A DNA stretch of 64,000 nt from a virus: IMG/VR virus record IMGVR_UViG_3300009158_000001, positions 110,108 to 174,107 of that record. One strand, written 5' to 3'. This document shows, piece by piece, positions 4,813-22,876 of this stretch. The translations under genes and the position numbers were made by a program. Under the pieces are notes generated by a model, which did not search any database, was not told the origin of the DNA, and saw only the letters and a list, made by a program, of their open reading frames with translations. The stretch's first letter is position 1, and each line of letters begins with the position of its first letter.

Positions 4813-5161
4813 ACTAAAGTTTAAACTTTATTAACTTGATACCATAAGGAGCCTTATATATGTATAAGGACAAAACCTCTATATATATTTGGGGAAAAAA
4901 TCTAGGGGAAAAGCTAGGGGGAAAGGGGTATAGGTCTGGGAAAGACGTAGACTTGCCTAAAGAACTCTATATAGGTTTATATATTTATATTTTTATTTTT
5001 ATGGAAAAGAGTGGGTACTTTATATACTGGGACCCTTAAACAACCCATACCCCTATTCGTTTTAGCCCACCCCCTTTAAACGTAAAACTCTGACCGTTAG
5101 GGTGGGACATTGGGTTCCAAAAAGCCCTGCAATTGAGCAGGCACGCGTCTAGGAGTCTGCC

Positions 5162-8100
5162 ATGACTATTGCCCTTATCGTCCTCGCCATCTTCGTCTGC
5201 ATTGTCATCCTTTCCAACACGGTGAGCTATCTCATGACCGCCAACAAGACCGCGCCCATCACCCCCGCCGAGGTTCGTATGAACAACAACAACCACCCCC
5301 TCATCGTCCTGGCCATCGTCACCCTGGTTGTCATTGGTGGCCTTGTCACCTTCGGCATCGGCAAGACTGCTGGCCTGTGGGCTCAGCCCTCCTTCGAGGA
5401 TCTCGTTGACCCCTACGCTGTCGCTGAGTATGAGCAGGTTGCCCTGCGCATTACCAGCTTCCCCCACCCTGGTGTTGGCCAGTACTCGCCTGATGAGGGT
5501 ACCAATTGCACGGGCTGGGCCTGGAAGGGCCACATGTACGGCATTACCCATTGTGATGTCGACACATACATCATTGGCAAGGAGACGGGTGAGACCCCTG
5601 ATCCAGTGGTCCGTATCAACACGGATCACGTTGTCAGTGTCCCTGTATTGGGCAATGACCTCTACACCGTTGGCATGGAATGCAGCCCTGACCTTCGCTG
5701 GTGGGGTGCTACCACTGGTGAGTGGCGTAACCTCGATTGGAGCGACATCGACGTTGAGACATTCAGCCCTAACAACCGCGCTGCTAGCCTCATGCTTGAG
5801 CGCTGGCATGGTAGCGTAAACCGAGCACAGGACGCACTGGCTCAGCAGAACGAGTACAGCGCTAGCCTGTACACCAACACCGCCCTGTTCCAGCAGGGTG
5901 AGTGGGAGATCCTTAGCAAGGGTCAGCGCTACTGCTACGACAGCCAGGATGATGTGGTTGGCCATGGTGGCTGGTTCCGTAGTGGCGATAGCGGTGGTGT
6001 CCTTCTCGCAGGGGATGAGCCCATCGGCGCTGTTAGCTACAGCAACGGGTCTGAGACCCGCAACTGCTTCAGCGCAATTGCGTTGTCGCAGGAGAAGTCC
6101 TACCAGGACTTTGAGTTCCGGGAACTCTCTTCGACCACCATGGACCTGACTGGGAAGTTCAAGACCGCTGCTTCCCACTCGGGTATGCAGGGGCGGATTT
6201 TCCGTAGCCTCAACACCGAAACCACCAACGCCCATCAGGGCAAGGAGAATTTCATGCCTTACCTCATCCTCGCCATCCTCGGCCTCATCCTCGCTGCCGC
6301 CACCACGACCATCAAGGTCAAGGAGTTTCTCATGTCCAACCTTCGCACCATCGTCATTGGTTTCCTGATTGTCCTGGGCCTTGTGGTCCCGATCGTTCTG
6401 GCGTGGAACCACGCCCTCACGGTTTGTCCTGTCACGGACGCATGGTTCAGTGTCAACTTTATGAACGGTGCCCTGGTTAGCATCGTCGTTGAAATGGCTG
6501 CAATTGCGGCTGTTCTCGCCATGGCAACGCTTATCTCTGAGATGAGCTGCCCAAAGTGGATGGTTAAGCCTATCCTCGCCATCACCCCCAACCTTGCCAC
6601 CATCACGGCCAATAAGGCCAAGGAGTCTGTCATGCCTATTCGCCTGTACATTGCAATCATCCTCACAATCGCCATCTTCGTCCCCATGGCGCTTATCGCC
6701 ACCTTCCGAGAGGCCTTCGTGTGTATCTTGGGCCTTGGCCCCCTTGCATTCACGGCTATTGACCTCATTCTGCATGTGGAGTACCACTACCATGTGCGTG
6801 AGCTTTCTATCGTGACCAAGAAGCTCATCGCCCACCAGAAGCTGCACAAGCTGCTCTTTGGCGGTATGGCTCTTCTCGCCATGGTTCTTGGTGGGTGCGG
6901 CGATACCATCCAGCAGGCTCCTGCTGGTATGGGCGAAATCGTCGCCGCTCACAACGGCGAATGCAGCGCCTTCCACTGGCAGGGCCAGATCAGGACGGCG
7001 GCTCACTGCACCTATGCCAGCACCGATTGGCGGGACAACGCAACAGCCGTTCTTCACCAGCAGCAAGGAAAGCATGCTATCCCAGAAGACTTGGCAGATA
7101 TCGGCCAAGAGTGTAGCCCCGACCTGCGTTGGTGGGGTGCCACCACTGGTCGGACTCTGCCTGTGGAGGACGTCAAATTCTACGCTGTAAAGCGTGGGCA
7201 AAACGTCTGGGACCTTGGCGAACAAGTTCCTCCATGGACTCCTGGAGCACAGGCCTGCTTCACCCAGACCCTGCACAACCGCTTCTCCGACGGAGATAGC
7301 GGAGGACCCCTTCTCGCCGGTGATGAGCCGGTGGGCAGCGTCTCCTGGAGCAGCAACCTGCCTTGGGGCATGGCCTGCTTCGGCCGACTGGAAAAACAAC
7401 CAATGTGGGGAAATCTCTCCACGTCTTCCCCGCAAGGGGGTAAGGGCTTCCGCATGAAGTCCATCGAAATGACTGACAGCCTCGCTGTCACTTTGACCCA
7501 GGTCTTCACGGACCTTGCCATTGCAGGAGCAATCCTGGCGCTGGCCTTCCTTCTGGCCCGAGTCCGGGCCAAGTTCCGCACGCACGACGAAACCAACGCC
7601 GGCAATTCTGCTGGCCTCATTGGGGCTAAGAACCCCAGTAAGGGACACATGTCCCCCATTTTGGCCTTCGTGGCCCGCCTGACGAGCGTAATCGTCATCC
7701 TCCTCCTTGGTGTCTGCCTGCTGGCAGCACCCGGCGTGACCCCGCTGGTCTCTTCGAACAACAGCCCGACCATCGAGACGGGCATCGACCCTGAGGCCAT
7801 TGCCAAGATTGTCCAGCGCTTGAAGAAGCGCCTGGCGTACGGCATGCGGATGGCCAAGAAGAAGCGGTGGACCGTGCGTCGCTTGAACCGCTGGCTCGTT
7901 GCAAACGGTTACAAGGCCAAGGCCAAGAAGGCCAAGAAGGCGGTCGCAAAGGCCGTTGTCAAGTTTGACCGTGCGGGTATGACCCGCCGTCAGCGTCGCG
8001 CAAAGGCCCATAAGGCCAAGGTTGCAGCAACGAAGGCAGAAACCAAGGCTCGTGGCGTTAAGCGCCGCGCAGAAGCCAAGGCAACGAACGACGCAATCGC

Positions 8101-11100
8101 CAAGCTGGAGGCTGCGATTGCCTTCCTCGGGCTCATTGCCCGCGTGGCCCGTCACCAACGGCGCATGGAAGTGTCGGCTGCGCGGTCGAAGCGCAAGGTG
8201 GCTCGCAAGGCCACTGCTAAGCCCGCCGCCAAGAAGATCATTGTCAGGGCCGAGGGTGCAGGTCGTCCCACCTTCCACCCCCGCCGCAGCAAAGTCCAGG
8301 GATACAACCCTGCCGCACAAAGCCGACAGGAGATCATCACCTCACGCGAAAAGCGGGAAGAGCGTCGCCTTGCACGCGAGGCTCGGCACCTCACGCTCCT
8401 TAATAGGGCATATGCTGCCCTCCTCAACATGGTCGTTGAGGGAACGGCATTCAAAGCAGGCTGGACCCTTCGAGGTGCATGCATGCTGCTGGCGGACAAC
8501 ATGGCTTGGGTTGCCGCCCAGGCCGAGATCCAAACGTTCGATCAAGATGACGACGTGGCCTGGCAGTATGAGGCAGCCGTCCGCAACATCCCCTTCGAGA
8601 TTAAGCGGGAGGTTGAGAACGCAGAGGTCGACGCAGCATGGGCGCTCATCGAGGCCAACGACAAGAAAGTCCTTGCCGAGATCAAGCAAGCGAACGCTAA
8701 GGCGCGGGCCAAGAGGAAGGCAGAGCGTGAAGAGCGCATTGCCACTCACAGGGCGAAGGTCGACGCAGAGCGGGCCGAACGTGAAGCCGCCAAGGCCGTA
8801 AAGGCCGAAGAGCGCAGGAAGCGGGAAATGGCAAAGGCGGAGCGCCTGGTTGAAGCCCTCAAGGCCCGTGAGGCCAAGAAGGGCAAGACCACCAAGGTGG
8901 ATGTTACTCCTGTGTCTCCCGTGGCTAAGCTGCGGGAAGTCCAGGCAAACAGCCCCGTTCTCGCCGTTGTCGCAGGTCTTGGGCTTGCGACTGGCATGGT
9001 GGCCGTTGCCGTCATTGCCCTTGCTGCAATTGCCTTCTTCGCTATTCGCAAGAATCGTGCCGAAGACTGCAAAGAAGAAACGGTCGACGCAGATTGGGGC
9101 GATCTGCTTGAAGCTCCTGCTGAGCCACAGCCCCAGTCCCTGTTGCTGCGTCTGACAGAGCTCTTGGGCCAAGAGTCTCCTGCGCGGGAGGTTGTTGCAT
9201 ATGAACCTGCTCCTGCACCAGTTACTGTACCTGCCGAGCCAGAGCCGCAATCTCTTCTTGGGCGTCTTATTGAGCTTCTGCCTGAGGCTGAGGCGCGTGC
9301 TACTGAGCCTGCCACCTGCGCTTGCGGAATACCGCAGGAAGAAGGCTACGTCTGCGATACCTGCGTACTCAATGAGTATGCTGCTGGTATGGCAAATGCC
9401 CTCGAAAATGCGGTCGAAGAGTTTCCCTTCACCGATCCTGGTGACTGGGATGGCGGGGCAATCGATGACGTGTATGCGGCTCAGCTCATGGCGGCTGACC
9501 GTGAAGCCGCGCAACGCGATGCGGCAGACTTGGAAGAGCACCTGCAGGTTCTTGCGGCAGAAGCTGCTCTTGCAGACCTCGACCAGGAAGCAGAACAGGA
9601 CATTGATCCGCTAGATCTTCTAGTGGAGAAGGCCAAGGAGGAAGAGATGGAAGAGGAAAAGACCCCTGAGCAGGTCTGGGCAGAAATCTGCAATGAGCTG
9701 ACGGTATCCCCTAGGAACTACTCGGCTAATGCTGCAATGAACATCTTGATTGAGATGTATCAGCGCAAGATTGACCTGTTCCGTTTCCGCCATTTCGGCA
9801 CTACTCGTACGTTCACCCGCAAAGACAAAGACGGGGATAGGCGTACCAGTAAGACAAAGACTCTGCGCAAGGACGTTATTGTCCGGTTTGCCAGCATCCT
9901 GCGTCAGGACAAGGAGATGGCAACGTGGTTTGCGGAAGCAAGTCACGATCCCTCTTGGGAGCAGTTCTGGGTTGGCATCGAGTCCCTTATGAAGGACAAG
10001 AAGCAGGCTTGGACTGCCCAGGATTGGCGTATCCTTCGAGCCAGGTACGAAGCGGCTGTCTTGGTCGTTAACGACCTCTGCATCGAGTTCCTCGGTCAGT
10101 CGAAGAGCAAGCCAAAGTTCATGGCAAGTGAAGTCTCTTGTCTTGTAACCAAAGACACCTTCCGCTACCGTGCAGTTGGTGCGCAGGAAGCGATGGAAGC
10201 CTGCAAGCGCATTAACGCAAAGCACAAAGGTGGCTTCTGTGTGGCTCGTGGTGTCTACCAAGAGCAAATGCTTAGCGGCTCTCACCTGCCCTGGGTTGTT
10301 GATAAGGCTGACGGGGAAGGCAACTGGCTGGAGTTTGGCTTTGTTCTCACCACCAGCGCTGGTGTTGCAGACTGGGGCTTTGGCCGTGAAAACCGCAACA
10401 ATAGCAGTGTTGAGCTGAAGACTGCCACAGAAATGCTTGGTGGAATTGTCCAGCTTGATCAGTACAAGCCAGAACGTGCGTACATCGAGATGTTCCACAA
10501 GAACTGGACCTTGATGAAGAAGCCCAGCCTTAACGACTGGAAGACTTTCATTAAGACAGCCTTTGCCAATGGCAACATGTTATTCATTAACCCAACGACA
10601 ATGGATACCAGGCATGTCGCCAAGAACGGCACCAGTTACAGTAAGTCTGTAACTGACAATGGCACAACAGCCAGCACGGTCCATACTTTCTTCAACGATG
10701 GTAGCGTGACCACGGTAATGACGCGCAAGACTCTTGATGCAAATTCGAAAGGCTTTGCTCACAAGTTCAGCAGTGCGCGGACGACTATCAGGAAGTTCTT
10801 CTTGAAACACTCTGGTATTCGTGATCTCAAGGTTCTTCCTTGGGAAGTTGTCGAAAGCCGAGATGAGCTGGCAACAAAGTTTGGCAATGAGTCGTATGAC
10901 CAATACCAGGCATGCCGTAAAGCAATCTCTGCTGATCGCAATCATCGGCTAGACGTTGTAGTTCTTAGCCGCGTGAACAATGCACGGTTTGAGGCTTGGG
11001 CTACTGAGTATGTGCAGAATAAGCAATCATCGGTTGTTTATCACATCAAGACTCGGCAGCCTTTGACGCTCAGCCAGCTCAACAAGCAGAATAAGGCCCT

Positions 11101-14100
11101 TGCAAAGCTGCAGGGTAATTACTTCTTGGCTCAAACTGAGTTGGAAACTAGCCGCGCTGGTATTGCAGCCATTAGGCATACGATTGAGACGAGTGCTTAT
11201 ACGTCTCAAGAACTGTCTTCTGATTTGATTGAGGCCTTCAAAGAAGGTTACCAATGGATGAAGACTCCTGGTGGCTATCAGTTGGTTAGCGCAAGAAAAG
11301 CTGCAGCAAACCCAGAGAAGATTCTCAAGGGCGAAGCTCTTGCTGCTGTGCTGGATGCGTGGATCAAGACTGCCATTGACGTTCAGGCAGACTCTCTTCG
11401 CGCAGAGGGTGCGAAGATTGTGCGCAGGTACGAAGAAGCACTTCAGCTTCTGCTTCCTGGGTACAGCTGCAAGGTCAATGGTGAGGATTGTCTCATGGCT
11501 GCATACAATAAAGCAGAACATGCGAAAAAGACAGACCCCAGCAATCCTGAGATTGCCTTGCTTCTTGCAGCGTACTATGCGGAGTACGAGAAAGAGCAAG
11601 CGGAGTACGAGAATGAGCAAGCGAAAATCCAAGCGCGTTACGAGAAAACCCATAAGGAATGTCAGGAGTATGAGCAGCGCGTTAAGGAGCAGGAAGGATG
11701 GGATGAAATCCCGTTCTGTAAAGCAGGTGCCGTTCTTTCGGCATTGGCTCTTGCAGCTGGGCTTCCTGCCTTCGTGGTAGTGTTGCCGCTTGCACTGACG
11801 GCACTGGCTGCTTTCATGAAGATGGAAAACTCTGACGTTGAAGGTGAGGAGATCCTCGCTGACAATGCAGAGTTCTGCCTGTACAGTACACCAATTGTCC
11901 GTCACACAACAGGCAAGTGGACTGCAGTCAAAGACAACAACACTGGGGAATCCGCCCCAGTCGAAGCTGGCGAAAGCCAGAAGGAGAAGCCCATGAGCTT
12001 CCTTGACAAGATGAACCAGACCATCCGAAATGTCTGGAACGAGCTCACCGGCCGTGAGAGAATTGGTACTGACGTGAAGACCAAGGCACCTGCCACGTAC
12101 GGCTCTATCCTTGCTGCCAGCAAGGTTGAGCACACGGCACTTACCCGTATCTGCGGTGGTAAGATCCGTGAGATGCAAGTCACCGAACTCAGCAGTGAAG
12201 AGCTGCGTGAGATCAAAGACTTCATCCGCCGTGATGGTGACACCTGGATCATTGTCCGCGACTCTCAGAAGTTCCACTTCCCGAACTGGGCAATGGAGAA
12301 GCTGGTGTCTGAGATTGTGATTGCAGGTCACGCTGTCGACAAGAAGGTCAGCCAGCAGGAAGTGAATAAGTATTTCGGCAGCTTGCTTTGGGCTCCTGCT
12401 GAGATTGTTTCCTTCCAGGCTAGCGAAGCCAAGGTCATGAGTGATGGGCTTGCCGCCATGTACGACGGTACCAACCTGATGAGCGATGAGCTTGCATCGA
12501 CTATCGACTGGGTTGGCTATGCAATTCGTCGACTGCTTACGGTACTCGGCTTGTTCAAGGGTATGTTCATTATCCTTCCTGCTGGGTACTTCCCGTCTGG
12601 GGTCAAGCTATTCGGCAGTGAGGTGAAGAAGCACCTTCGTCTGCGTCGGGATAGCGGTCGTGCACTTGCACTGCAGCCTCAGGCTAACGGTCACAGTGAT
12701 GTGGCTAGGACTCTAGGCATGCAGCTTTGGTCCATGCTGTTGGGCCCCTGGATTGCTAGTGTTGGTTTTGCCAATCTAGCGAAGGGAGCGTACGGCTATG
12801 CAATGTCGAACCTGAACAAGGCTAATGAGCGTCTTCTTGCTCCTGCAGAGGAAGAAGAAGAAGGCCGCGATGCCTTGATGGCTGAGGCTAGCCGCCTGCA
12901 CGGGTTCAATCCAATTGCTGTATTCAGGTCTTTTGCGACCAGCATGGCAAACGGGCTCACGAAGTCCTTCAATCCCAACAAGGTGAACATTGCACCTGTT
13001 GACGAGAAGGGCAGAAGCCTTGTGCCAAACGGCTATCCGATGATGCTGCCTTGGCTTGCGCTGGCAGAGCTGTGGCTCAAGGTCACGGGCAAAGTGCCAG
13101 AAGAGCTTGCTAAGAAGGTTGAAGATACCGAAAAGCTTCGTCTGCGGCTCTTTAAGCTTGCGAACGGCGCAATTCCAGTGCTTGTGCACAACATGCACCG
13201 CCTTGATGCGGCTAAGGTTGCAGGCATTCGTCGCATGGCTATTGCTGCTATTGCGACTCGCATCCCGACTGGCAAGACCAGCGGTATCGAGGTTATGCTC
13301 TTCGACGCAGAAGAGTATGGGGCAGATCTACTGCCTGAGATCGTTGGCCGTAAGAAGAACGACATTGAGTTCTGGCTCTTCCCTTGCGAGGAGACCACGG
13401 CCTTCAAGGTTGCTTCTGAGGGCGGCGACGACGACGACCTGTACGAGTTCCTCCTGGGAATTCTGCACAAGCTGGCTCGCCTTGGCCTTGAGTGGCGGGC
13501 AAAGATCCTCGATGTGAGTGCCGATACGCAAAAGGCCATGGACGAAATCAAAGTTCGCTTTGCTCGTCAGGTGGCAGCATTCAAAGAAGACCGTAAGCTT
13601 CTTGCAAAGCTGATGGAGATGCCTTATGCAAAAGTCTTCACGGCAAATGGCAAGGTCAGGGCAGGCTGGCCGTCTCTCTTGGGTGTTACCATGGCACCAG
13701 GTGGATGGCAGATCCGTCACACGGAAGCTGTTGAAGATATCATCGTGATGACCGAGGAGTCCCGTGAAGATATCGCCACCCAGGCTCGCCTCTTTGCTGA
13801 GGTAATGACAGCAAACAACGACAGCCCGTTCACCAGCGCCATTGGCACTGTTGCGCAGAGCCACAAGTTTGCCACTGGCATCTTGACTGGAAACGTTGTG
13901 CTGACGAACAGTATCGGTGCTCTGGATAAGATCTGGGCACTCTTTGTTCTTGCTACCATTCTGCTGTCGGATATGGTAGACGCTTGCAACAAGGGCAAGA
14001 AGTACGCAGAGGCTGGTGCTGCACTCATGTACCTTAACTGGGCATGGGGCTGGCTGTGCTATCGTATTGCTAGCAATCCAGATGCTAAGGTTATCTGCCC

Positions 14101-16453
14101 TGCGCAGTATCTAGTATCTGTGCCTCCTGCTGCCAAAGAGCTGTTCAACGCACGTCATGCTAATAAGATGACTGTTGATGGCAAAGTTGTTCAGCCGGGC
14201 AAGCTTCTCAACAATCTCTATGAGAACCATAGAGAGCTTGGCGAGACGGTCGAGGCTATGATCCGCGAAGAGCACAACCGTGCTGAGTTCTCGGCTACGG
14301 TAACTGCGATGCTTCAGACTGTTAGCGTTCCTGTGCCTGGGGCTGCTTCTGCTCAGGGTATGGGCTCGGAAGTCTGGGCTGAAGTCTGGACTGCAAGCGG
14401 CCGCAAGAAGATCTACCTGGATGGTCTCAAGCAGAAGTCTGCTATGAGGTTCGAAGACATTCGGGCAGAGCAGCGTTACATGGCAGAACTCAACAATGCA
14501 ACCGTCTACGCAGCACATGCTGAGTTTGACCGTATTGTCATGGGTCGCCTTGTGAAAGCTGATCCTAACGCTACTAGTGAGGAGATTGCAGCTATGTTCA
14601 AGCTTTGCAAGCTTGGCATGGTCTACTCGTATGCTTTCAAGACTGTTGGCTACGAAGAGAACTGCGTCAAGATCCTTATGGATGAAGAGGGAGAGTTCGG
14701 CGCTTCTGGCGGCGTTCCTACCTACATCATCCCTGTCAGCGGCAACTGCACCTTTATCGGCAACTTTGCAGGTAGCAGCGAGATCCTCCTTGAGTGGATG
14801 ATGAATCCTGCTACACTCGCACTTGTTGCTGAGATCAAAGCCAAGGCTGGCGACTTCAAGTACGTCGTTCTCTCCATGAAGGGTGAAGCCTTTGGAGAGA
14901 TGATTGACGGCGGTCGTGACCTCAGGTACAGCGAGGCTGACTTTGATGGCAAATCCATCACGGAGATCCTCTGTATGCCTGGCGTTGCTCTTGCTGGCAA
15001 TCAGCGTGAAGAAAGCCACGTTGATCAGAGCACCTGGCTTGCAAGTGTAGCAGACACGGTCACGCAACGTCGCAACGACATTCTTCGCAAGCTGAAGGCG
15101 GAGAACAAAGCAGCAGAAGCATTGCTTCGCGGCAAGACTTTCGGAGAGCTTCTTCAGGAGTTCAACGTAACGGTCGTCGCAGAGTCCGTCACTGGCACTG
15201 CCAAGGTCGAAAAGATCGAGGCGTTCAAGTGGATGGACAAGAAGCATGCGGGTCGTACGTACCCAAACACCTTTGTCATTGTTCGCTTCGGGAATGAAGC
15301 AGATCCTGTGACTGAGGAGATGGAAGAGGATGATATTACCATCTTCCTTGCTGACGAAGTGATTGAGGCTGCTCCTGACACCAAGGAGAACATTACGATC
15401 GAGGCCTCTGCTCCTGTGGTTGAAAAGACTGCAGAAGCAAAAAAAGACAGCATAAGCGATAAGCTCAACCGCATCTTCGGCAAGAAGGAGGCTGTTAAGC
15501 CCCCTGCTCCTATCGAAGTCGTGCCTGCTGCTGTTGTTGCGGCTGCTACTGGACAAGAGGAGCTCAAGATCCTGAGCATTTCTGAGCCTGCCTTTGCGAA
15601 AGAAGGATGGTCCCAGACCAGCGAAGGAAAGCTTGTGCGCCGCACTTTCAGCAAGACCAAAGTCAAGGAAGTCTTTGCTGCTGGCTGGAACTTCTGCTTC
15701 TGCGAGGGCGATGGAGACAAGTGGGTCATTGCAGACACCCGCTTTGGTTTTGTCATTGGCCGCGGACAGACTCAGGTCATAGCGTTGCAAAGGGCAATTG
15801 CAAACACCCAGGCTGCTAAGGTTGGACGCAACCTTCTTGACGAAGTCCAGTTCTCGAACTGGCTCTTTGACCGTGCAACTCAGGCTCAGCGTCCGCTTGT
15901 TGACCTGATTGCAGAGCACAACAAGAAGGAAGAGCCCGTGGCCGAGGCAACTCCTGCTACTCCTGTTGTTGTCGCAGAGACTGCTGGTACTAAGCCTACT
16001 AGCCGTTGCGTTGGTAACTTCGCATTGGCTGGCCTTCAGCACTCTAGTAACGTCAATGTTGCTGAGCGTGAGCTTGTTGAGGGCGTAAAGATTACTCTCA
16101 TCCGCAATGTGGCTCACCCCAAGGATGCAAATGCCGTTGAGGTCCATGTGAATGGTTACCGCTTCGGGTATGTTCCTAAGGAAGCCGCTGCAAGGCTGGC
16201 TCCTCGGATGGACATCGGCGTGAAGGCGTGGGCCATTGTCACGGGATGGGAAAACGGGTACGCCCGCTTCGATCTGTTCCTTGGCAAGACGCCCACTACC
16301 TTGGAGACGTTCAACTACCAGCGTGACGAAATCGAGCGTGCATGCGAGGGGCTTGCCTGGCTGGAGTCGTACGACGCGACCGATGAACAGAAGGCTCCGG
16401 CTAATGCCCTCCTTGCGCACTTTGCTGCCCTTTGTGGTAGCCTTAAGCTCTGA
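5162..16453 (+). CDS. 3763-aa polyprotein-like ORF: membrane segments, two trypsin-like serine proteases, basic/coiled-coil and acidic regions, two-barrel RNA polymerase, HIRAN domain
   Basis: Open frame with SD AGGAG at 5151; domain motifs are listed in the sub-features; several in-frame internal SD+ATG sites. Confidence 0.85.
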   Translation: MTIALIVLAIFVCIVILSNTVSYLMTANKTAPITPAEVRMNNNNHPLIVLAIVTLVVIGGLVTFGIGKTAGLWAQPSFEDLVDPYAVAEYEQVALRITSFPHPGVGQYSPDEGTNCTGWAWKGHMYGITHCDVDTYIIGKETGETPDPVVRINTDHVVSVPVLGNDLYTVGMECSPDLRWWGATTGEWRNLDWSDIDVETFSPNNRAASLMLERWHGSVNRAQDALAQQNEYSASLYTNTALFQQGEWEILSKGQRYCYDSQDDVVGHGGWFRSGDSGGVLLAGDEPIGAVSYSNGSETRNCFSAIALSQEKSYQDFEFRELSSTTMDLTGKFKTAASHSGMQGRIFRSLNTETTNAHQGKENFMPYLILAILGLILAAATTTIKVKEFLMSNLRTIVIGFLIVLGLVVPIVLAWNHALTVCPVTDAWFSVNFMNGALVSIVVEMAAIAAVLAMATLISEMSCPKWMVKPILAITPNLATITANKAKESVMPIRLYIAIILTIAIFVPMALIATFREAFVCILGLGPLAFTAIDLILHVEYHYHVRELSIVTKKLIAHQKLHKLLFGGMALLAMVLGGCGDTIQQAPAGMGEIVAAHNGECSAFHWQGQIRTAAHCTYASTDWRDNATAVLHQQQGKHAIPEDLADIGQECSPDLRWWGATTGRTLPVEDVKFYAVKRGQNVWDLGEQVPPWTPGAQACFTQTLHNRFSDGDSGGPLLAGDEPVGSVSWSSNLPWGMACFGRLEKQPMWGNLSTSSPQGGKGFRMKSIEMTDSLAVTLTQVFTDLAIAGAILALAFLLARVRAKFRTHDETNAGNSAGLIGAKNPSKGHMSPILAFVARLTSVIVILLLGVCLLAAPGVTPLVSSNNSPTIETGIDPEAIAKIVQRLKKRLAYGMRMAKKKRWTVRRLNRWLVANGYKAKAKKAKKAVAKAVVKFDRAGMTRRQRRAKAHKAKVAATKAETKARGVKRRAEAKATNDAIAKLEAAIAFLGLIARVARHQRRMEVSAARSKRKVARKATAKPAAKKIIVRAEGAGRPTFHPRRSKVQGYNPAAQSRQEIITSREKREERRLAREARHLTLLNRAYAALLNMVVEGTAFKAGWTLRGACMLLADNMAWVAAQAEIQTFDQDDDVAWQYEAAVRNIPFEIKREVENAEVDAAWALIEANDKKVLAEIKQANAKARAKRKAEREERIATHRAKVDAERAEREAAKAVKAEERRKREMAKAERLVEALKAREAKKGKTTKVDVTPVSPVAKLREVQANSPVLAVVAGLGLATGMVAVAVIALAAIAFFAIRKNRAEDCKEETVDADWGDLLEAPAEPQPQSLLLRLTELLGQESPAREVVAYEPAPAPVTVPAEPEPQSLLGRLIELLPEAEARATEPATCACGIPQEEGYVCDTCVLNEYAAGMANALENAVEEFPFTDPGDWDGGAIDDVYAAQLMAADREAAQRDAADLEEHLQVLAAEAALADLDQEAEQDIDPLDLLVEKAKEEEMEEEKTPEQVWAEICNELTVSPRNYSANAAMNILIEMYQRKIDLFRFRHFGTTRTFTRKDKDGDRRTSKTKTLRKDVIVRFASILRQDKEMATWFAEASHDPSWEQFWVGIESLMKDKKQAWTAQDWRILRARYEAAVLVVNDLCIEFLGQSKSKPKFMASEVSCLVTKDTFRYRAVGAQEAMEACKRINAKHKGGFCVARGVYQEQMLSGSHLPWVVDKADGEGNWLEFGFVLTTSAGVADWGFGRENRNNSSVELKTATEMLGGIVQLDQYKPERAYIEMFHKNWTLMKKPSLNDWKTFIKTAFANGNMLFINPTTMDTRHVAKNGTSYSKSVTDNGTTASTVHTFFNDGSVTTVMTRKTLDANSKGFAHKFSSARTTIRKFFLKHSGIRDLKVLPWEVVESRDELATKFGNESYDQYQACRKAISADRNHRLDVVVLSRVNNARFEAWATEYVQNKQSSVVYHIKTRQPLTLSQLNKQNKALAKLQGNYFLAQTELETSRAGIAAIRHTIETSAYTSQELSSDLIEAFKEGYQWMKTPGGYQLVSARKAAANPEKILKGEALAAVLDAWIKTAIDVQADSLRAEGAKIVRRYEEALQLLLPGYSCKVNGEDCLMAAYNKAEHAKKTDPSNPEIALLLAAYYAEYEKEQAEYENEQAKIQARYEKTHKECQEYEQRVKEQEGWDEIPFCKAGAVLSALALAAGLPAFVVVLPLALTALAAFMKMENSDVEGEEILADNAEFCLYSTPIVRHTTGKWTAVKDNNTGESAPVEAGESQKEKPMSFLDKMNQTIRNVWNELTGRERIGTDVKTKAPATYGSILAASKVEHTALTRICGGKIREMQVTELSSEELREIKDFIRRDGDTWIIVRDSQKFHFPNWAMEKLVSEIVIAGHAVDKKVSQQEVNKYFGSLLWAPAEIVSFQASEAKVMSDGLAAMYDGTNLMSDELASTIDWVGYAIRRLLTVLGLFKGMFIILPAGYFPSGVKLFGSEVKKHLRLRRDSGRALALQPQANGHSDVARTLGMQLWSMLLGPWIASVGFANLAKGAYGYAMSNLNKANERLLAPAEEEEEGRDALMAEASRLHGFNPIAVFRSFATSMANGLTKSFNPNKVNIAPVDEKGRSLVPNGYPMMLPWLALAELWLKVTGKVPEELAKKVEDTEKLRLRLFKLANGAIPVLVHNMHRLDAAKVAGIRRMAIAAIATRIPTGKTSGIEVMLFDAEEYGADLLPEIVGRKKNDIEFWLFPCEETTAFKVASEGGDDDDLYEFLLGILHKLARLGLEWRAKILDVSADTQKAMDEIKVRFARQVAAFKEDRKLLAKLMEMPYAKVFTANGKVRAGWPSLLGVTMAPGGWQIRHTEAVEDIIVMTEESREDIATQARLFAEVMTANNDSPFTSAIGTVAQSHKFATGILTGNVVLTNSIGALDKIWALFVLATILLSDMVDACNKGKKYAEAGAALMYLNWAWGWLCYRIASNPDAKVICPAQYLVSVPPAAKELFNARHANKMTVDGKVVQPGKLLNNLYENHRELGETVEAMIREEHNRAEFSATVTAMLQTVSVPVPGAASAQGMGSEVWAEVWTASGRKKIYLDGLKQKSAMRFEDIRAEQRYMAELNNATVYAAHAEFDRIVMGRLVKADPNATSEEIAAMFKLCKLGMVYSYAFKTVGYEENCVKILMDEEGEFGASGGVPTYIIPVSGNCTFIGNFAGSSEILLEWMMNPATLALVAEIKAKAGDFKYVVLSMKGEAFGEMIDGGRDLRYSEADFDGKSITEILCMPGVALAGNQREESHVDQSTWLASVADTVTQRRNDILRKLKAENKAAEALLRGKTFGELLQEFNVTVVAESVTGTAKVEKIEAFKWMDKKHAGRTYPNTFVIVRFGNEADPVTEEMEEDDITIFLADEVIEAAPDTKENITIEASAPVVEKTAEAKKDSISDKLNRIFGKKEAVKPPAPIEVVPAAVVAAATGQEELKILSISEPAFAKEGWSQTSEGKLVRRTFSKTKVKEVFAAGWNFCFCEGDGDKWVIADTRFGFVIGRGQTQVIALQRAIANTQAAKVGRNLLDEVQFSNWLFDRATQAQRPLVDLIAEHNKKEEPVAEATPATPVVVAETAGTKPTSRCVGNFALAGLQHSSNVNVAERELVEGVKITLIRNVAHPKDANAVEVHVNGYRFGYVPKEAAARLAPRMDIGVKAWAIVTGWENGYARFDLFLGKTPTTLETFNYQRDEIERACEGLAWLESYDATDEQKAPANALLAHFAALCGSLKL
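5500..6080 (+). other. Trypsin-like serine protease domain 1 of the giant ORF
   Basis: CTG..GITHC (His, 5546-5554), GNDLY (Asp), GDSGG (5984-5998), then LLAGDEPIGAVS; preceded by a signal-anchor. Confidence 0.7.
6940..7390 (+). other. Trypsin-like serine protease domain 2 of the giant ORF, preceded by a lipobox-like LGGC
   Basis: CSA..TAAHC (6995-7009), EDLA (Asp), GDSGGPL (7292-7312), GSVSW; LGGC at 6887-6898 follows a basic and hydrophobic stretch. Confidence 0.8.
11993..15300 (+). other. Single-subunit double-psi-barrel RNA polymerase domain (YonO / cellular-RdRP-like); C-terminal boundary approximate
   Basis: Motifs in family order: YDGTNLMS (12461), FKGMF (12554), TRIP (13256), GGDDDD (13421-13438), AIG (13838), SDMVDACNKG (13967-13996). 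Has its own SD AAGGAG + ATG at 11993. Confidence 0.75.
16019..16285 (+). other. HIRAN domain at the C-terminus of the giant ORF
   Basis: FALAGLQH...ITLIRNVAHPKDANAVEV..GYRFGYVPKEAAARLAPRMD matches the HIRAN consensus. Confidence 0.85.
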
Positions 16454-16475
16454 GGTTACTATGAAGGAGATCCTC

Positions 16476-16733
16476 ATGAAGTACATGGGTGGTGCTAAGT
16501 ATCCTGGTCCTTGCCGCAATTGCAGCCGCTACTGTGGTTGTGATACACTGCGGCTCTTCCGAGATGACCGATATAAGGCAGCGAAGTGGGTCACAATCTG
16601 CACAGATTGCTGTGAAGAATGGGATGCCCGCTTCAACAAGCCCAAGGCCATTGTGGCTCCTCAACCTGCTCCTGTAAAGGAAGTGAAGGTTGTGGAAGTC
16701 GCTAAGCCAAAGCAACTTTCGTTGTTCGGCTAG
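16476..16733 (+). CDS. Small Cys-rich (zinc-finger-like) protein
   Basis: SD AAGGAG before ATG 16476 (alternative in-frame ATG at 16461); CRNC..CTDC. Confidence 0.6.
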   Translation: MKYMGGAKYPGPCRNCSRYCGCDTLRLFRDDRYKAAKWVTICTDCCEEWDARFNKPKAIVAPQPAPVKEVKVVEVAKPKQLSLFG

Positions 16734-16897: not shown

Positions 16898-16912
16898 GGC
16901 TCCTGCGTCGCC
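16898..16912 (+). promoter_or_regulatory. Hairpin motif copy 1 (putative phage-RNAP promoter)
   Basis: GGC-TCCTGCGTC-GCC. Confidence 0.65.
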
Positions 16913-16970
16913 CAGAGCATTGTAGGCTTCGCTCCCTGGCAACAAAGCTAGACCAACGAGAGGTCTGGTG

Positions 16971-16987
16971 GGCCTCCTGCGTCGGCC
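16971..16987 (+). promoter_or_regulatory. Hairpin motif copy 2
   Basis: GGCC-TCCTGCGTC-GGCC. Confidence 0.65.
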
Positions 16988-16989
16988 AG

Positions 16990-17152
16990 ATATAGTGAGC
17001 GTTCACGCTTGCTATACTGGCGGATCCGTCCCAGTAGATGCGAGAGATAACGGATAGGTACCTCCCAAACGTCTACCTTGTCGGGTGTGGGAAGGCCGAA
17101 AACGCTGACAAGGAAAGAACCTCTGGCCTCACGGCTGGGGGTTCTTTTTTTT
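16990..17152 (+). ncRNA. Putative structured small RNA ending in an intrinsic terminator
   Basis: No credible ORF. Stems TATAGTGAGCG/CGCTTGCTATA and CCTTGTCGG/CTGACAAGG; terminator at 17115-17152. Confidence 0.45.
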
Positions 17153-17201
17153 CCACTCCGCTGAATAACCAGATAACTTGTGGCAACCAGGGGTCTTACG
17201 A

Positions 17202-17216
17202 GGCTCCTTCGTCGCC
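17202..17216 (+). promoter_or_regulatory. Hairpin motif copy 3
   Basis: GGC-TCCTTCGTC-GCC. Confidence 0.65.
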
Positions 17217-17219
17217 CAA

Positions 17220-17457
17220 AGCATCGGATGGTGGCTGCCGCTACCCGTATCAGAGAAGGCCTGTCGGTCTCTGGTATGTATCAGACAGGGGCGGTTGCCA
17301 GTCCGCCTAACAGAAAAACTGGCCGTCATCCCCTTTAGGATGGCATGTTTACGTCCCCTCTTGGACGGGTTCCTGGTAGTGGTAATCCTACTTACTGCGT
17401 ACCAGGATAGAGAGGTAAAGCCCCAGCACAGTAGGATGTGTTGGGGTTTTATTTTTG
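17220..17457 (+). ncRNA. Putative structured small RNA ending in an intrinsic terminator
   Basis: No SD-led ORF. Stems CCTGTC/GACAGG, GCCAGT/ACTGGC, GCCGTC/GATGGC, TCCTGGTA/TACCAGGA; terminator at 17417-17457. Confidence 0.45.
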
Positions 17458-17508
17458 TTACTCCGCTATATAAGTAGATTACTAGTAACTATATAGTGGT
17501 TTGTTGGC

Positions 17509-17523
17509 GGCTCCTACGTCGCC
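17509..17523 (+). promoter_or_regulatory. Hairpin motif copy 4
   Basis: GGC-TCCTACGTC-GCC. Confidence 0.65.
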
Positions 17524-17526
17524 CAA

Positions 17527-17674
17527 AGCACTGGGCGTTGACGCTCTGCCATCTCCGTTGGTAGAGACTAGCTTTAAAACACGGGGAGTCCCAGGTCGGC
17601 CTTACGGGCTTGGATAAGACTATTGGCAGAAGGACAGATTCCCACTACTAGGCCGGTAGTGGGTTTCTTTTTTT
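17527..17674 (+). ncRNA. Putative small RNA ending in an intrinsic terminator
   Basis: No SD-led ORF; terminator CCCACTAC/GTAGTGGG + T-tract at 17641-17674. Confidence 0.4.
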
Positions 17675-17692
17675 GGCCTCCTTCGTCGGCCA
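17674..17692 (+). promoter_or_regulatory. Hairpin motif copy 5
   Basis: TGGCC-TCCTTCGTC-GGCCA. Confidence 0.65.
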
Positions 17693-17736
17693 GAGATTAT
17701 GAGGCACTTTCGCCTCTCGGTCCTTAGGAGGACACC

Positions 17737-17949
17737 ATGAAGGCAGGTAAGTATCACTCGTACGACTGGCGAACCGAGCGGGATGCGGATGCTGATAGGA
17801 GCGTCTTCGTCCAGGCCTGGAAAGCCAAGTTCCCTGGGGTCGTGCCGCAGTTCGCCATCATCCTGGATGACGGCAGTTGCCACTGGTGGAACGAATGGCC
17901 AGACGGGCGGACTCGGCGGCTTCCGCCTAGCACATTCAAGATCGGCTAA
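17737..17949 (+). CDS. Hypothetical protein (70 aa)
   Basis: SD TAGGAGG; lies between motif copy 5 and a terminator. Confidence 0.75.
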   Translation: MKAGKYHSYDWRTERDADADRSVFVQAWKAKFPGVVPQFAIILDDGSCHWWNEWPDGRTRRLPPSTFKIG

Positions 17950-17955
17950 AGATAG

Positions 17956-17987
17956 ACCCTCGGCTTCGGTTGGGGGTTTTTCTTTTC
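17956..17987 (+). terminator. Intrinsic terminator with C-UUCG-G loop
   Basis: ACCCTCGGC-TTCG-GTTGGGGGT + T-tract. Confidence 0.8.
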
Positions 17988-18126
17988 TCACTCCGCTACA
18001 CAGTGGGGTGGCTCCAGCTCCCGGACTCTTCGGCGGTCAGCAGGTAGGAACCCAATAGCAAAAAGAGGCGAAAAAATATAGACTCCGCTATAGGCCGGAA
18101 AGGTTATATCAACTAGTAGTGTTGAG

Positions 18127-18141
18127 AGCTCCTGCGTCGCC
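18127..18141 (+). promoter_or_regulatory. Hairpin motif copy 6
   Basis: AGC-TCCTGCGTC-GCC. Confidence 0.6.
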
Positions 18142-18144
18142 TAA

Positions 18145-18408
18145 GTGTTGTGAGGTAATCGCGGACCTCTTAGTCATGTTCCAACCCTGGGGAGCATGAT
18201 GAGCCTAGTTAGACAAGGCAAAACGAACAAAGGGAGTAGGTGTCCATCCGCCGAAGTTAAGAGCACCTGTACGCGGGACTCGGGATGGAACTCATGTGCT
18301 GGATCTCCTAAGGAGGCACATGTTTAAACAGAAGAGGGGATGACCTGCGCATGTCACAAAACTGCCCCAATTTTAACCCTCTGGCTTCGGTCGGAGGGTT
18401 TTTCTTTT
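18145..18408 (+). ncRNA. Putative structured RNA ending in an intrinsic terminator
   Basis: Stems GAGGT/ACCTC, CATGTTCC/GGAGCATG, TCCATCC/GGATGGA; UUCG terminator at 18376-18408; only a 6-codon SD-led micro-ORF. Confidence 0.4.
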
Positions 18409-18426
18409 GGCCTCCTGCGTCGTCCA
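18408..18426 (+). promoter_or_regulatory. Hairpin motif copy 7
   Basis: TGGCC-TCCTGCGTC-GTCCA. Confidence 0.6.
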
Positions 18427-18466
18427 GAGAAAGTGGGCAACTTTCGCCCCAAACGGAGAAGAGAAC

Positions 18467-18646
18467 ATGCAGTACGATCTTACAGTGACACAAAGCCCCA
18501 GCGGACTCGTATACTTTCGGGTATACAGCAAAGAGACCGGTGATTGCAAGTGCATCCTGAGCATCGACCCCAAGGACGGGTCTCTCGAGGCGGCAACGGG
18601 TGACGAGGAGTTCACGGGCTACTCCATCGTTGGAGAACTCGTCTAA
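18467..18646 (+). CDS. Hypothetical protein (59 aa)
   Basis: SD GGAG before ATG 18467 (MQYDLTV...). Confidence 0.65.
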   Translation: MQYDLTVTQSPSGLVYFRVYSKETGDCKCILSIDPKDGSLEAATGDEEFTGYSIVGELV

Positions 18647-18650
18647 GAGA

Positions 18651-18680
18651 GACCCTGGCTTCGGCTGGGGTTTCTTTTTT
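18651..18680 (+). terminator. Intrinsic terminator with C-UUCG-G loop
   Basis: GACCCTGGC-TTCG-GCTGGGGTT + T-tract. Confidence 0.8.
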
Positions 18681-18682
18681 CA

Positions 18683-18697
18683 GGCTCCTTCGTCGCC
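18683..18697 (+). promoter_or_regulatory. Hairpin motif copy 8
   Basis: GGC-TCCTTCGTC-GCC. Confidence 0.65.
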
Positions 18698-18740
18698 CAA
18701 GGAAAATGGGTAATGTCACCCTTCCTTTACGGAGTCGAAG

Positions 18741-19145
18741 ATGAACAGTGTCAATTTTGTCGGGTTTCTTACTTCCACCCATAAGGAAGTGGGCGATGTC
18801 CTCTGTGTCGTCGTGAAGAGTGTCGATGGGAACAGTGCTCCCACTGTGCGTTTCACGGGCAAGCAGCGTGAGGCTCTCAAGAAGTGGGGCACCCCCGGAC
18901 GTCTTGTGAGCATCAGTGGCAGCTTCGGAACGGAGGTGAATGGCAAGGTGAAGGACTCCTTCATCGCCTGCGCCTACAGCCGTTTCTTGGACAAGCAGGA
19001 GACTGTGGCTAAGGCTGCTGCTCCTGTTGCGGCACCTGTCGTGGCTGCTGCACCTGTCAAGGCTGCAAAGGCTCCCAAGGCTGCAAAGGCCACAAAGGCT
19101 GCTCCTCCCGCGAATGTCGATCCTGACGACGTTCCGTGGGCGTAA
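18741..19145 (+). CDS. Divergent SSB-like OB-fold protein
   Basis: MNSVNFVGFLT start, GRLVSISGSF strand, Ala/Lys/Pro linker and acidic tail DPDDVPWA. Confidence 0.6.
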   Translation: MNSVNFVGFLTSTHKEVGDVLCVVVKSVDGNSAPTVRFTGKQREALKKWGTPGRLVSISGSFGTEVNGKVKDSFIACAYSRFLDKQETVAKAAAPVAAPVVAAAPVKAAKAPKAAKATKAAPPANVDPDDVPWA

Positions 19146-19147
19146 CT

Positions 19148-19180
19148 AACCCCTGGCTTCGGCTGGGGGTTCTTTTTCTT
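19148..19180 (+). terminator. Intrinsic terminator with C-UUCG-G loop
   Basis: AACCCCTGGC-TTCG-GCTGGGGGTT + T-tract. Confidence 0.8.
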
Positions 19181-19271
19181 GACTCCGCTATGGGCCGGTG
19201 CAGTTCCAGCTCCGAGACGTCTGGCGGCTGTCAGGGAGAAGACCATCATCAAAAAGAGGCGAAAATAAATG

Positions 19272-19286
19272 GGCTCCTGCGTCGCC
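19272..19286 (+). promoter_or_regulatory. Hairpin motif copy 9
   Basis: GGC-TCCTGCGTC-GCC. Confidence 0.65.
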
Positions 19287-19327
19287 TAGGTACAGTGAGG
19301 GTTTGTCCTCGTTGCCAGGAGTCTGTC

Positions 19328-19468
19328 ATGTTTGAGAAAGTGTCGCTTGAAGACTGTTACGGTATCGCTGTGGGTGGTGAGGACGAGATGATCGCCCGCA
19401 TCGACGAGGCCAATGAGTACGTGTACAACCACGATGAGTTGGATGACTTCGACTACAGCGAAGGTTGA
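19328..19468 (+). CDS. Small acidic protein (46 aa)
   Basis: AGGAGTCTGTC-ATG start; terminator at 19470-19498 follows. Confidence 0.65.
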   Translation: MFEKVSLEDCYGIAVGGEDEMIARIDEANEYVYNHDELDDFDYSEG

Positions 19469-19509
19469 AGAGATGGCCCGAAAGGGTCTTTTCTTTTCTA
19501 AGACAAAGG

Positions 19510-19526
19510 GGCCTCCTGCGTCGGCC
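19510..19526 (+). promoter_or_regulatory. Hairpin motif copy 10
   Basis: GGCC-TCCTGCGTC-GGCC. Confidence 0.65.
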
Positions 19527-19529
19527 ATA

Positions 19530-19970
19530 TGTCTTGAGTCTCGGCTCTACAGTTTACGGCGTCGAGTAGGTTACATTGCGAATAATAGGGGATGTAAACC
19601 CTATTGCTCGTACTGCAAGACGTCATCCTTTGAGAGTTTACTAGTAAAATCATAAGTGCGCCTGCCGCTTATGGGAACCTAGTGAGAGTCAGGGTTGCAA
19701 ACCTGGCTATAACAAATAGGCTGACTATTATGGGACCCTGCCCTGGTAGTTATATGAACATGGGGTGGTCTGCTGCAGCGGGCCTTTGATCAGTCGGGTG
19801 TTCGCTATACAGATACTGAACGGGTGACCACGCCCACAGTTGAGTGCAAGGCTCAGCAATTAGGATTCCTACGAGAAGGGTTCAATCCCCTTTTTCATCG
19901 GCCACATGCCATGTAGGGTTCAGTATCAGCGCAATGTATGGCTATGGGTTCGAGTCCCATATGATTGAAT
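19530..19970 (+). ncRNA. Putative ~440-nt multi-stem RNA or structured leader with two T-loop hairpins
   Basis: No SD-led ORF. Nested stems GTCTTG/CAAGAC, AATAGGG/CCCTATT, CATAAG/CTTATG, AGTCAG/CTGACT; T-loop-like GGTTCAATCC (19879) and GGTTCGAGTCC (19947). Confidence 0.45.
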
Positions 19971-19998
19971 TACTTTACACCGTCCTAAGGAGGACAAC

Positions 19999-20577: not shown

Positions 20578-20732
20578 TAGTCCAATAGGTCCACAGCCTG
20601 CAACCTGCCCGTTGGTAGGCTAACCTATCAGATGTCATGTCTGGTAGCCACAAAGGCTGCATCACTTCCTTATGGTAATAGATAGGTTCGAATCCTATCA
20701 GGAAGACTTTACCCCCTTATATAGGTGACAAG

Positions 20733-20936
20733 ATGAAACATGTGCCCGGACATAGTTCGATGGATGAGCAGGCTATGGAGACTGTAATCTCTCATGGGAA
20801 GTTTCTTCTTGAGAGAGCAAATGCAGTACTACATTTATATCCCCAGCTCCAAGAGTATAGGGATGCACTGGTAGAGATGCAGAAGTATGCCGAGAAGGCA
20901 ATGGATAATGGACACTTCCCCGATTCCGACCTCTAA
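20733..20936 (+). CDS. Hypothetical protein
   Basis: SD AGGT; operon-like packing. Confidence 0.65.
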   Translation: MKHVPGHSSMDEQAMETVISHGKFLLERANAVLHLYPQLQEYRDALVEMQKYAEKAMDNGHFPDSDL

Positions 20937-20954
20937 CGTCCTTAGGAGGACACC

Positions 20955-21137: not shown

Positions 21138-21139
21138 TC

Positions 21140-21598: not shown

Positions 21599-21609
21599 CA
21601 GGAAAAACA

Positions 21610-21783: not shown

Positions 21784-21793
21784 GAGGTGTACT

Positions 21794-22418: not shown

Positions 22419-22420
22419 TC

Positions 22421-22867: not shown

Positions 22868-22876
22868 GAGAAGAAC

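Follow-up and report, generated by a model that had tools for sequence, protein, structure and literature searches.

The window analyzed here, 64,000 nt in length, is the stretch from position 110,108 to 174,107 of the IMG/VR virus record IMGVR_UViG_3300009158_000001, and its source is an uncultured freshwater tailed phage with a 174-kb genome. It contains a giant open reading frame (ORF), P0001, which appears to be a composite early gene. According to the reading we favor, with a probability of roughly 0.55, the gene would yield a membrane-anchored long form and, from an internal start at Met2278, a free polymerase-HIRAN protein that would transcribe downstream early genes. The last 1486 residues hold the polymerase and the HIRAN domain, and the preceding 2277 residues consist of other cassettes. 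The coordinates of all features are collected in Table 1.

The giant reading frame and its polymerase

A preliminary description of this DNA had reported an 11.3-kb open frame that reads like a chain of separate genes. The frame was found as described, with 3763 amino acids (aa) on the plus strand and zero internal stops. The genome is represented by one 174,107-bp contig, of which the window is the final part, and it is probably complete because this single contig carries a 124-bp terminal overlap. The giant gene opens a rightward arm, and the large structural genes form a leftward arm that diverges from it. Eight homologues were recovered when residues 1650-3763 served as the query of a word-indexed search, and single open frames of 3725 aa (L006), 3963 aa (L003), and 4057 aa (L004) were present in contigs of relatives from different samples. 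In all, four diverged relatives keep versions of 3725-4057 codons. Across independent assemblies, the giant homologues shared 27-98% segment identity with the window ORF. With the whole protein as the query, Pfam, PHROGs, NCBIfam, PDB, and tblastn searches (the last against 50,697 phage records) detected only HIRAN and a weak Trypsin match.

The core common to all homologues was delimited by pairwise comparison at aa 2190-3385. An alignment of 23 polymerase sequences (A1) was used as the input for an AlphaFold2 (AF2) model of this core, which reached a predicted local distance difference test (pLDDT) score of 83.4 and a predicted template modeling (pTM) score of 0.78 and was disordered through core residue 89. 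When the model was compared to the PDB with Foldseek, QDE-1 was the first match (E 1.5e-7), followed by Thermus phage P32 gp64 (E 4e-5) and P74 gp62, plant RDR2, crAss-like phage phi14:2 gp66 (E 2.4e-3), P23-45 gp96, and Pol II Rpb1. The independent aligner VIA-align returned ZmRDR2 (Z 13.0), QDE-1 (Z 11.9 over 627 residues), P74 gp62 (Z 11.4), and gp96 (Z 10.2), and it placed isolated double-psi barrels (DPBB) on model residues 430-580. The BFVD viral structure library yielded P23-45 gp64 and phage proteins labeled 'RdRP' (RNA-dependent RNA polymerase). All top structural matches from both aligners were two-barrel RNA polymerases (RNAPs), and an N4-type right-hand fold of palm, fingers, and thumb was rejected on this basis. 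In the model, the predicted catalytic core is formed by two DPBB domains.

The invariant columns of A1 included K2403 and K2466 in the first barrel, and R2700-x-P2702 and D2756/D2758/D2759 in the second barrel. The two-barrel superfamily is characterized by a DxDxD Asp triad on one barrel and two basic residues from the other (PMC7824862). The invariant residues may correspond to such an active site, with the three Asp residues spaced as G-D-x-D-D in all 23 sequences compared to D-x-D-x-D in the superfamily. A search of the PDB with the polymerase profile gave zero matches, and sequence methods tied the family to no solved polymerase; T7/N4-type sequence matches were likewise absent from the Pfam and PDB searches of the giant protein. 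An exhaustive HMMER search among 1.84 billion representatives found only 20 clusters of this family, among them stand-alone proteins of 1081-1250 aa and fusions to a PIF1 helicase or to YpsA-SLOG. The polymerase is a new sequence family, and its modeled structure places it in the phage/plasmid/RdRP clade of two-barrel enzymes. The HIRAN domain that follows it is also present in the homologues P0003-P0005, P0007-P0009, P0011, and P0012.

Candidate internal start sites and N-terminal cassettes

Eight in-frame ATGs of the giant ORF had been listed as preceded by Shine-Dalgarno (SD) sequences. All eight codons exist, and strong SD sequences, AAGGAG or AAGGAGG at a spacing of 5-6, were confirmed at 6254, 6332, 6632, 9647, and 11993. 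The other three are weak, with GAGG at 5279 and merely AAGGG-like sequences inside structured RNA at 7454 and 7649. Low local RNA structure supports the sites at 5279, 6332, 6632, and 9647, but not those at 11993, 7454, and 7649. The 14-mer AGGAGTCTGTCATG is shared by 6621-6634 and 19317-19330, as had been noted before, and 5151-5164, at the start of the giant ORF itself, has a single mismatch to it. The copy at 6621-6634 thus equals the start of a bona fide gene, the small one at 19328, and the context AGGAGTCT..ATG also opens the giant gene in relatives.

The in-frame pattern AGGAG-N5-8-ATG occurred five times in the giant ORF, compared to a mean of 0.67 in 2000 codon shuffles (P ~0.0005), and the other two frames contained 0 and 1. 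Its counterparts in L003, L004, and L006 held 3, 4, and 3 such sites against ~0.67 expected, while 13 other ORFs of 750-2460 aa in the same genome had one in total, below expectation. The sites lie where cassettes begin. Those at aa 365, 391, and 491 precede membrane helices and have equivalents in L003, L004, and L006; the equivalent of the site at 6632 is kept in L004 and L006 (aa 100).

The strongest evidence comes from the site at the edge of the polymerase. The form (A/C/G)AGGAG-N6-ATG was present in 10/10 loci for which DNA was available. At the protein level, 13 homologues kept K/Q-E-x-x-M inside a linker that varies in length and could not otherwise be aligned; these include polymerase alleles that are 27-33% identical. 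Met2278 is the last disordered residue of the AF2 model, and the confidence climbs at the next residue. From these patterns, we infer that internal starts are used.

The N-terminal 2200 residues contain ~12 membrane helices according to a hydropathy scan. The membrane helix just N-terminal of the polymerase was found in all closer homologues and is missing from the distant stand-alone forms. Two protease modules were delimited at aa 70-345 and 577-765 and were compared in an alignment of eight module copies (A2). The TAAHC-type His, the Asp, and the GDSGG Ser were invariant in 8/8 copies, and cysteines at trypsin-like positions were conserved. When module 2 was scanned alone, it matched Pfam Trypsin with 21.9 bits (cut-off 20.6), and the stand-alone protease gene of L001 reached 33.2 bits. 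The A2 profile retrieved from the PDB only S1 proteases (kallikreins, cathepsin G, trypsins, and granzymes), with both the His and Ser motifs aligned. Thus, on sequence grounds, both modules possess the S1 His-Asp-Ser triad in the right order and contexts.

Each protease is preceded by a membrane segment, and the stand-alone L001 protease has an N-terminal signal anchor. A lipobox-like LGGC ending at Cys579 (6896-6898) stands directly before protease 2, and a canonical lipoprotein signal peptide with an SD and ATG occupies the same place in L003 and L004. Both proteases are most likely located outside the cytoplasm, because signal-anchor or lipobox segments precede them and the trypsin-type cysteines are kept; at that location, they would be unable to reach cytoplasmic junctions of the chain.

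For the very basic region (aa 852-1276), Pfam family searches gave no match. In the acidic region (9047-9646, aa 1296-1495), the amphipathic motif E-P-Q-P..S-L-L-x-R-L-x-E-L-L occurs twice and is duplicated in L003 too; it could be a short linear binding motif. The 680-aa module is present in P0003, P0007, P0028, and P0027 at 30-57% identity. Pfam searches with aa 1490-2185 found no match, atlas scores were <0.9, and an AF2 model from a 5-sequence alignment was unusable (pLDDT 46). The modules named in the preliminary description, namely membrane proteins, two Ser proteases, basic and acidic regions, an RNAP, and HIRAN, were all recovered by A2, Pfam and PDB searches, hydropathy, AF2, and fold matches.

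The cassettes were variously joined in relatives. In L001 and L002, the protease is a separate gene of 293-313 aa whose stop overlaps the start (by one base in L001) of a 2176-aa anchor-polymerase-SLOG-HIRAN gene. L007 contains a 591-aa membrane-protein gene, a stop, a hairpin, and AAGGAG-N6-ATG, and then a 2088-aa protease-polymerase-HIRAN gene. YpsA (SLOG) with DUF4326 forms a separate downstream gene in L009 and is fused in P0009. The earlier view of the ORF as a chain of separate genes is supported by these neighboring genes of L001, L007, and L009. Add-on domains in relatives were SLOG, NADAR, DUF4326, metallophosphatase, and PIF1; the metallophosphatase cassette was found in L003, L004, and L011, and in L003 it lies where the window has the membrane-helix cluster.

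Identity to the window also changed abruptly along the chain. L003 was 90-92% identical over aa 1-355 and 70-92% at the HIRAN end, with 27-33% in the polymerase, and P0003 was 92-98% identical in the polymerase and 47-80% elsewhere, with its N-terminal modules reordered. As judged from these comparisons, cassettes have been fused, split, reordered, or exchanged by recombination across the relatives. The metallophosphatase of L003 (aa 395-620) and of L011 (aa 4-197) is a complete calcineurin-like domain with its own Met at the natural N-terminus, inserted in frame.

Table 1. Features of the giant gene and its surroundings in the window (aa numbers refer to the giant protein).
Feature	Position	Strand	Basis or remark
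Conserved upstream region and 5' leader	4813-5161	+	Alignment A3; hairpin 5126-5141 just before SD
Giant ORF P0001	5162-16453	+	3763 codons, 11,292 nt, stop at 16451-16453, uninterrupted frame
Two membrane helices, aa 3-21 and 48-66	5162-5368	+	Hydropathy
S1 trypsin-like protease module 1, triad H130/D166/S277	5369-6196	+	Alignment A2, PDB profile search
5-6 membrane helices, in-frame AAGGAG-N6-ATG at 6254/6332/6632	6254-6889	+	Hydropathy, site listing
S1 protease module 2, triad H615/D643/S713	6890-7456	+	Pfam Trypsin, A2, PDB profile search
Membrane helices, aa 774-792 (weak) and 833-851	7481-7714	+	Hydropathy
Very basic Lys/Arg/Ala-rich region, aa 852-1276	7715-8989	+	Composition, up to 32 K+R per 100 aa
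Membrane segment aa 1277-1295, then acidic Pro-rich region	8990-9646	+	Hydropathy, composition
680-aa module without family assignment	9647-11701	+	Starts at in-frame AAGGAGG-N5-ATG, not conserved in relatives
Membrane hairpin before polymerase, aa 2183-2221	11708-11824	+	Hydropathy
Conserved internal SD and ATG, AAGGAG-N6-ATG, Met2278	11981-11995	+	N-terminal edge of polymerase fold
Predicted single-chain two-barrel RNA polymerase core, aa 2278-3385	11993-15316	+	AF2 model, fold matches, invariant columns
HIRAN domain PF08797, aa 3620-3693	16019-16240	+	33.6 bits vs gathering cut-off 24.7, E 3.5e-8
14 stem-flanked TCCT(G/T/A)CGTC hairpins	16898-25390	+	40-70 nt before small genes, often just after terminator
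tRNAs	23984, 40733, 41319, 41439, 41515, 43872		Phage-encoded

Timing, candidate promoters, and competing explanations

Codon usage was divided into three tiers: the giant ORF with the early block, the middle genes (intermediate), and the late genes. In the giant ORF, the fractions of AGA, AAA, ACA, ATA, and TTA were 0.02, 0.15, 0.08, 0.02, and 0.00, and CCA was near-excluded too; in the late structural genes, the five values were 0.59, 0.65, 0.37, 0.31, and 0.30. The phage tRNAs serve AGA, AAA, CCA, and ACA, and a tRNA with a CAT anticodon is also encoded. The GC content at third codon positions was 0.51-0.73 in the early block compared to 0.27-0.38 elsewhere. In L009 and L010, the homologue of the giant gene is surrounded by small early-type ORFs. 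The avoidance of the phage-tRNA codons fits translation with host tRNAs at the very start of infection and speaks against a protein that is made late and packaged; the giant gene is probably early and non-virion.

Downstream of the giant gene, the motif TCCT(G/T/A)CGTC is flanked by GGC and GCC in the hairpin form GGC-TCCTGCGTC-GCC. The window contains 18 matches compared to 0.7 expected, all on the plus strand and including copies at 33594 and 56992, and the small genes behind the hairpins are individually terminated. No copy of the hairpin motif was found on the leftward (minus) structural arm of the genome. In six relatives, all copies of the motif lay downstream of the polymerase gene, and the loop variant with G was seen only beside the window-type polymerase allele (the window and L007). 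These hairpins are candidate promoters, and we infer that the polymerase of the giant ORF reads them.

The region upstream of the giant gene (4813-5161) behaves differently. In alignment A3, several of its blocks were invariant even in L001 and L011, whose polymerases are <50% identical, and this intergenic region is more conserved than both the flanking genes and the giant coding sequence. The leader hairpin before the SD keeps its pairing via compensatory changes. Within 4813-5161, neither the TCCTDCGTC motif nor a strong or strict sigma-70 promoter match was found, and the CTCTATATA-like repeat of the region was not clearly over-represented genome-wide. The region could serve another polymerase as its promoter; alternatively, it could be a signal for packaging or for a genome end.

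In the reading we favor, the gene would stand at the head of the rightward, early arm and would probably be expressed early. Its first 2277 residues would be exchangeable cassettes, with the membrane hairpin tethering the polymerase. Decoding would begin at the first ATG and at the conserved internal SD and ATG sites, and the products would include a long form anchored in the membrane and a soluble polymerase-HIRAN protein from Met2278. The polymerase would most likely transcribe the small downstream early genes from the TCCTDCGTC hairpin promoters. The exported proteases would act in the envelope and not on the cytoplasmic junctions of the chain.

Several observations weigh against this reading. 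The RNA at the ATG at 11993 is no less structured than average (rank 46/98). Because Lys and Glu are preferentially encoded by AAG and GAG in this genome, the codon choice at this site is only weakly informative, and K/Q-E-x-x-M might in principle have been conserved as a peptide signal. All anchored homologues keep an open frame upstream of the polymerase, which implies selection on the long anchored form as well, and the short form is a prediction. Catalysis is likewise only predicted, with an Asp signature of D-x-D-D, not the canonical D-x-D-x-D. Furthermore, L003-type polymerases, which are 27-33% identical, adjoin the same hairpin motif, and a 1953-aa protein of the structural arm is 93% identical between the phages; the motif might thus be read by another polymerase that is injected. 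This protein (genome C1:63898-69759, minus strand, corresponding to L005:7899-13760) had a single homologue, that of the L003 phage. It had no match in the PDB, PHROGs, the atlas, or phage tblastn searches, and hhalign detected no match to the polymerase profile.

A bolder and more tentative reading is an operon without stop codons, in which at least three conserved internal ribosome-binding sites would produce a nested, C-coterminal set of proteins, all ending in the polymerase. Such nested products had been proposed in the preliminary description; the enrichment and positional conservation of the sites fit the proposal. The long forms would hold the polymerase at the inner membrane beneath the periplasmic proteases, and this tethering might link transcription with the entry of the genome or with an early compartment at the envelope. 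The shortest form would be a free polymerase acting on hairpin promoters, and phages would swap cassettes at the internal starts.

It is unlikely that the ORF encodes a late-made giant 'polyvalent' protein, packaged in the capsid and injected with the DNA without any internal initiation, in the manner of N4 vRNAP, crAss gp66, and P23-45 gp96. In that case, the membrane helices and proteases would help to cross the envelope, and the first genes would be transcribed by the polymerase from the hairpin promoters. The giant size and modular build agree with this explanation, and two proteases, an RNAP, and HIRAN do place many unrelated effector-type domains in one polypeptide. The SLOG, NADAR, DUF4326, metallophosphatase, and PIF1 domains of relatives are typical polyvalent modules (PMC5512222), and in gp96 a two-barrel RNAP is joined to peptidase and membrane domains (PMC10770324). 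The giant gene also adjoins the structural arm, and the hairpin promoters begin directly after it. However, its codon usage lies at the opposite extreme from all structural genes, with the phage-tRNA codons avoided, and in L009 and L010 the gene sits among small early ORFs; codon class and neighborhood argue for early intracellular synthesis instead of packaging. An N-terminal signal anchor followed by ~12 helices would send the nascent chain to the membrane, not to proheads, and the conserved SD and ATG at the polymerase edge would be left unexplained.

A polyprotein in the style of RNA viruses also appears improbable. Under this explanation, the two serine proteases of the ORF, together with host signal and lipoprotein peptidases, would release membrane proteins, proteases, and the polymerase. 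The triads are intact in both protease modules, the lipobox precedes protease 2 with canonical lipoprotein signals in L003 and L004, and similar F-R-x-K/E-S/L stretches follow both proteases. In addition, the stand-alone protease gene of L001 ends exactly at the next gene, and peptidase-mediated processing has been proposed for polyvalent proteins (PMC5512222). On the other side, the signal-anchor and lipobox segments with the conserved cysteines put the proteases outside, away from the junction before the polymerase. A repeated cleavage motif was not found at the junctions, and many relatives with an anchored polymerase lack any protease module (P0009, P0010, and P0011). The release of the polymerase by the ORF's own proteases, as previously suggested, was thus not supported given their predicted exported location. 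Cleavage at periplasmic junctions could still be compatible with the favored reading of an anchored long form and a free polymerase.

Doubtful as well is a single early, unprocessed, membrane-anchored giant protein, in which the internal SD and ATG sites would be silent relics of fusion or pause sites before helices. In agreement with this explanation, the frame is open throughout the relatives, genes are often fused and split at this locus, and several sites are non-conserved (9647) or weak (5279, 7454, and 7649). However, the site at the polymerase edge persists with an exact N6 spacing across ~30%-identical polymerases with unalignable linkers, and such sites are scarcer than expected in the ordinary long genes of the phage.

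An artefact is scarcely credible, whether through frameshifts, overlooked stops, or the joining of a GC-rich contig to an AT-rich phage, as the leap of GC content from ~0.39 to 0.58 at the giant gene might suggest. An assembly chimera was rejected because the junction, the GC step (also seen in L001, L003, and L004), and the open frame all recur in independent assemblies from different samples and sources.

Two long antisense ORFs, 5036-8320 (minus strand, 1094 aa) and 14111-16519 (minus strand, 802 aa), were rejected as genes, since the domain hits all fall in the sense frame; their length is explained by the avoidance of TTA and CTA in that frame. In L003, a gene caller had shortened the real ORF and annotated antisense ORFs instead (561 and 634 aa; region 6299-9982, minus strand).

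Known systems and significance

In Thermus phage P23-45, gp96 is a two-barrel RNAP that is fused to a metallopeptidase, membrane domains, and the tape measure and is present in the virion, and gp64 is a non-virion two-barrel RNAP (PMC10770324). Membrane-coupled transcription of the entering DNA has been proposed for gp96; the injected polymerase transcribes the pre-early genes, including that of the second polymerase, which reads its own promoters (PMC10770324). N4-type polyvalent proteins also carry peptidases (PMC5512222). The earlier statement that proteins combining a protease and a polymerase are not typical of tailed DNA phages was therefore too strong.

The window polymerase resembles P23-45 gp64 and gp96 in its predicted single-chain two-barrel fold and in a polymerase gene that would be among the first expressed. 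It differs from them in lacking sequence similarity and a tape measure, and its membrane and protease part is N-terminal, with an S1 serine type and not a metallopeptidase. The window gene is further set apart by its early codon usage, the HIRAN domain after the polymerase, D-x-D-D, and the conserved internal start. Among the cellular RdRPs and the YonO-type polymerases of phages, QDE-1 and plant RDR2 are the best structural matches, and the order of a basic-residue barrel first and an Asp barrel second is shared, whereas identity is ~10-13% and the context here is that of a phage early gene. Like crAss phi14:2 gp66, N4 vRNAP, and polyvalent proteins, the giant protein joins many modules with a polymerase and peptidases, and variable SLOG, NADAR, phosphoesterase, and helicase domains occur in relatives. 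Those proteins are late and virion-packaged, unlike the window protein with its ~12 membrane helices and early-type codon usage. In addition, N4 vRNAP has a T7-like and not a two-barrel fold, and gp66 was a weak fold match.

Nested in-frame phage genes expressed by internal initiation include lambda C/Nu3 and T7 gene 4A/4B. As in these genes, one ORF with an internal SD and ATG at a domain border is predicted to give C-coterminal long and short products. The window gene differs in its 11.3-kb length, its five strong sites, of which at least three are positionally conserved, and a short form that would be an anchor-free polymerase. Positive-strand RNA virus polyproteins of the flavivirus type combine membrane segments, a chymotrypsin-fold protease, and a C-terminal polymerase. 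The giant ORF likewise holds helices, predicted chymotrypsin-fold serine proteases, a C-terminal polymerase, and internal signal sequences, but it belongs to a DNA phage, has an unrelated polymerase fold, and its proteases are probably across the membrane from the polymerase junction, with processing only hypothetical. The arrangement of the window polymerase and the genes behind it parallels that of P23-45 and also that of T7 gene 1.

Two other loci of the window were observed. An adenylosuccinate synthetase homologue (46068-47129, Pfam 1.1e-78) is located in the replication and nucleotide block; PurA-like genes of phages can be PurZ (2-aminoadenine DNA). At 35051-37708, a DUF2201 metallopeptidase/VWA-like protein adjoins a MoxR-type AAA ATPase.

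Both the fusion of a two-barrel polymerase to peptidase and membrane domains, as in gp96, and giant modular phage proteins (PMC5512222) have precedents. The new elements, each as read from the sequence, are a membrane anchor on the N-terminal side, proteases of the S1 type, the HIRAN domain, a setting among early genes, and an internal start conserved at the border of the polymerase. These results add a sequence-orphan family, with no Pfam, PHROG, or PDB sequence match, to the phage/plasmid two-barrel RNAP clade. The predicted setting of the polymerase is unprecedented: it is membrane-anchored, behind exported serine proteases and before HIRAN, with a conserved internal start from which an anchor-free form would be made. 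The three tiers of codon usage, which match the tRNA set of the phage, offer a sequence-only temporal classing of the genes of an uncultured phage. Giant genes of this type are likely under-annotated in viromes, as indicated by a relative in which gene calling shortened the ORF and annotated antisense ORFs. Should the internal starts be used, no larger case of nested-gene decoding in a phage would be known, and the gene would be a natural case of gene fusion and splitting at ribosome-binding sites.

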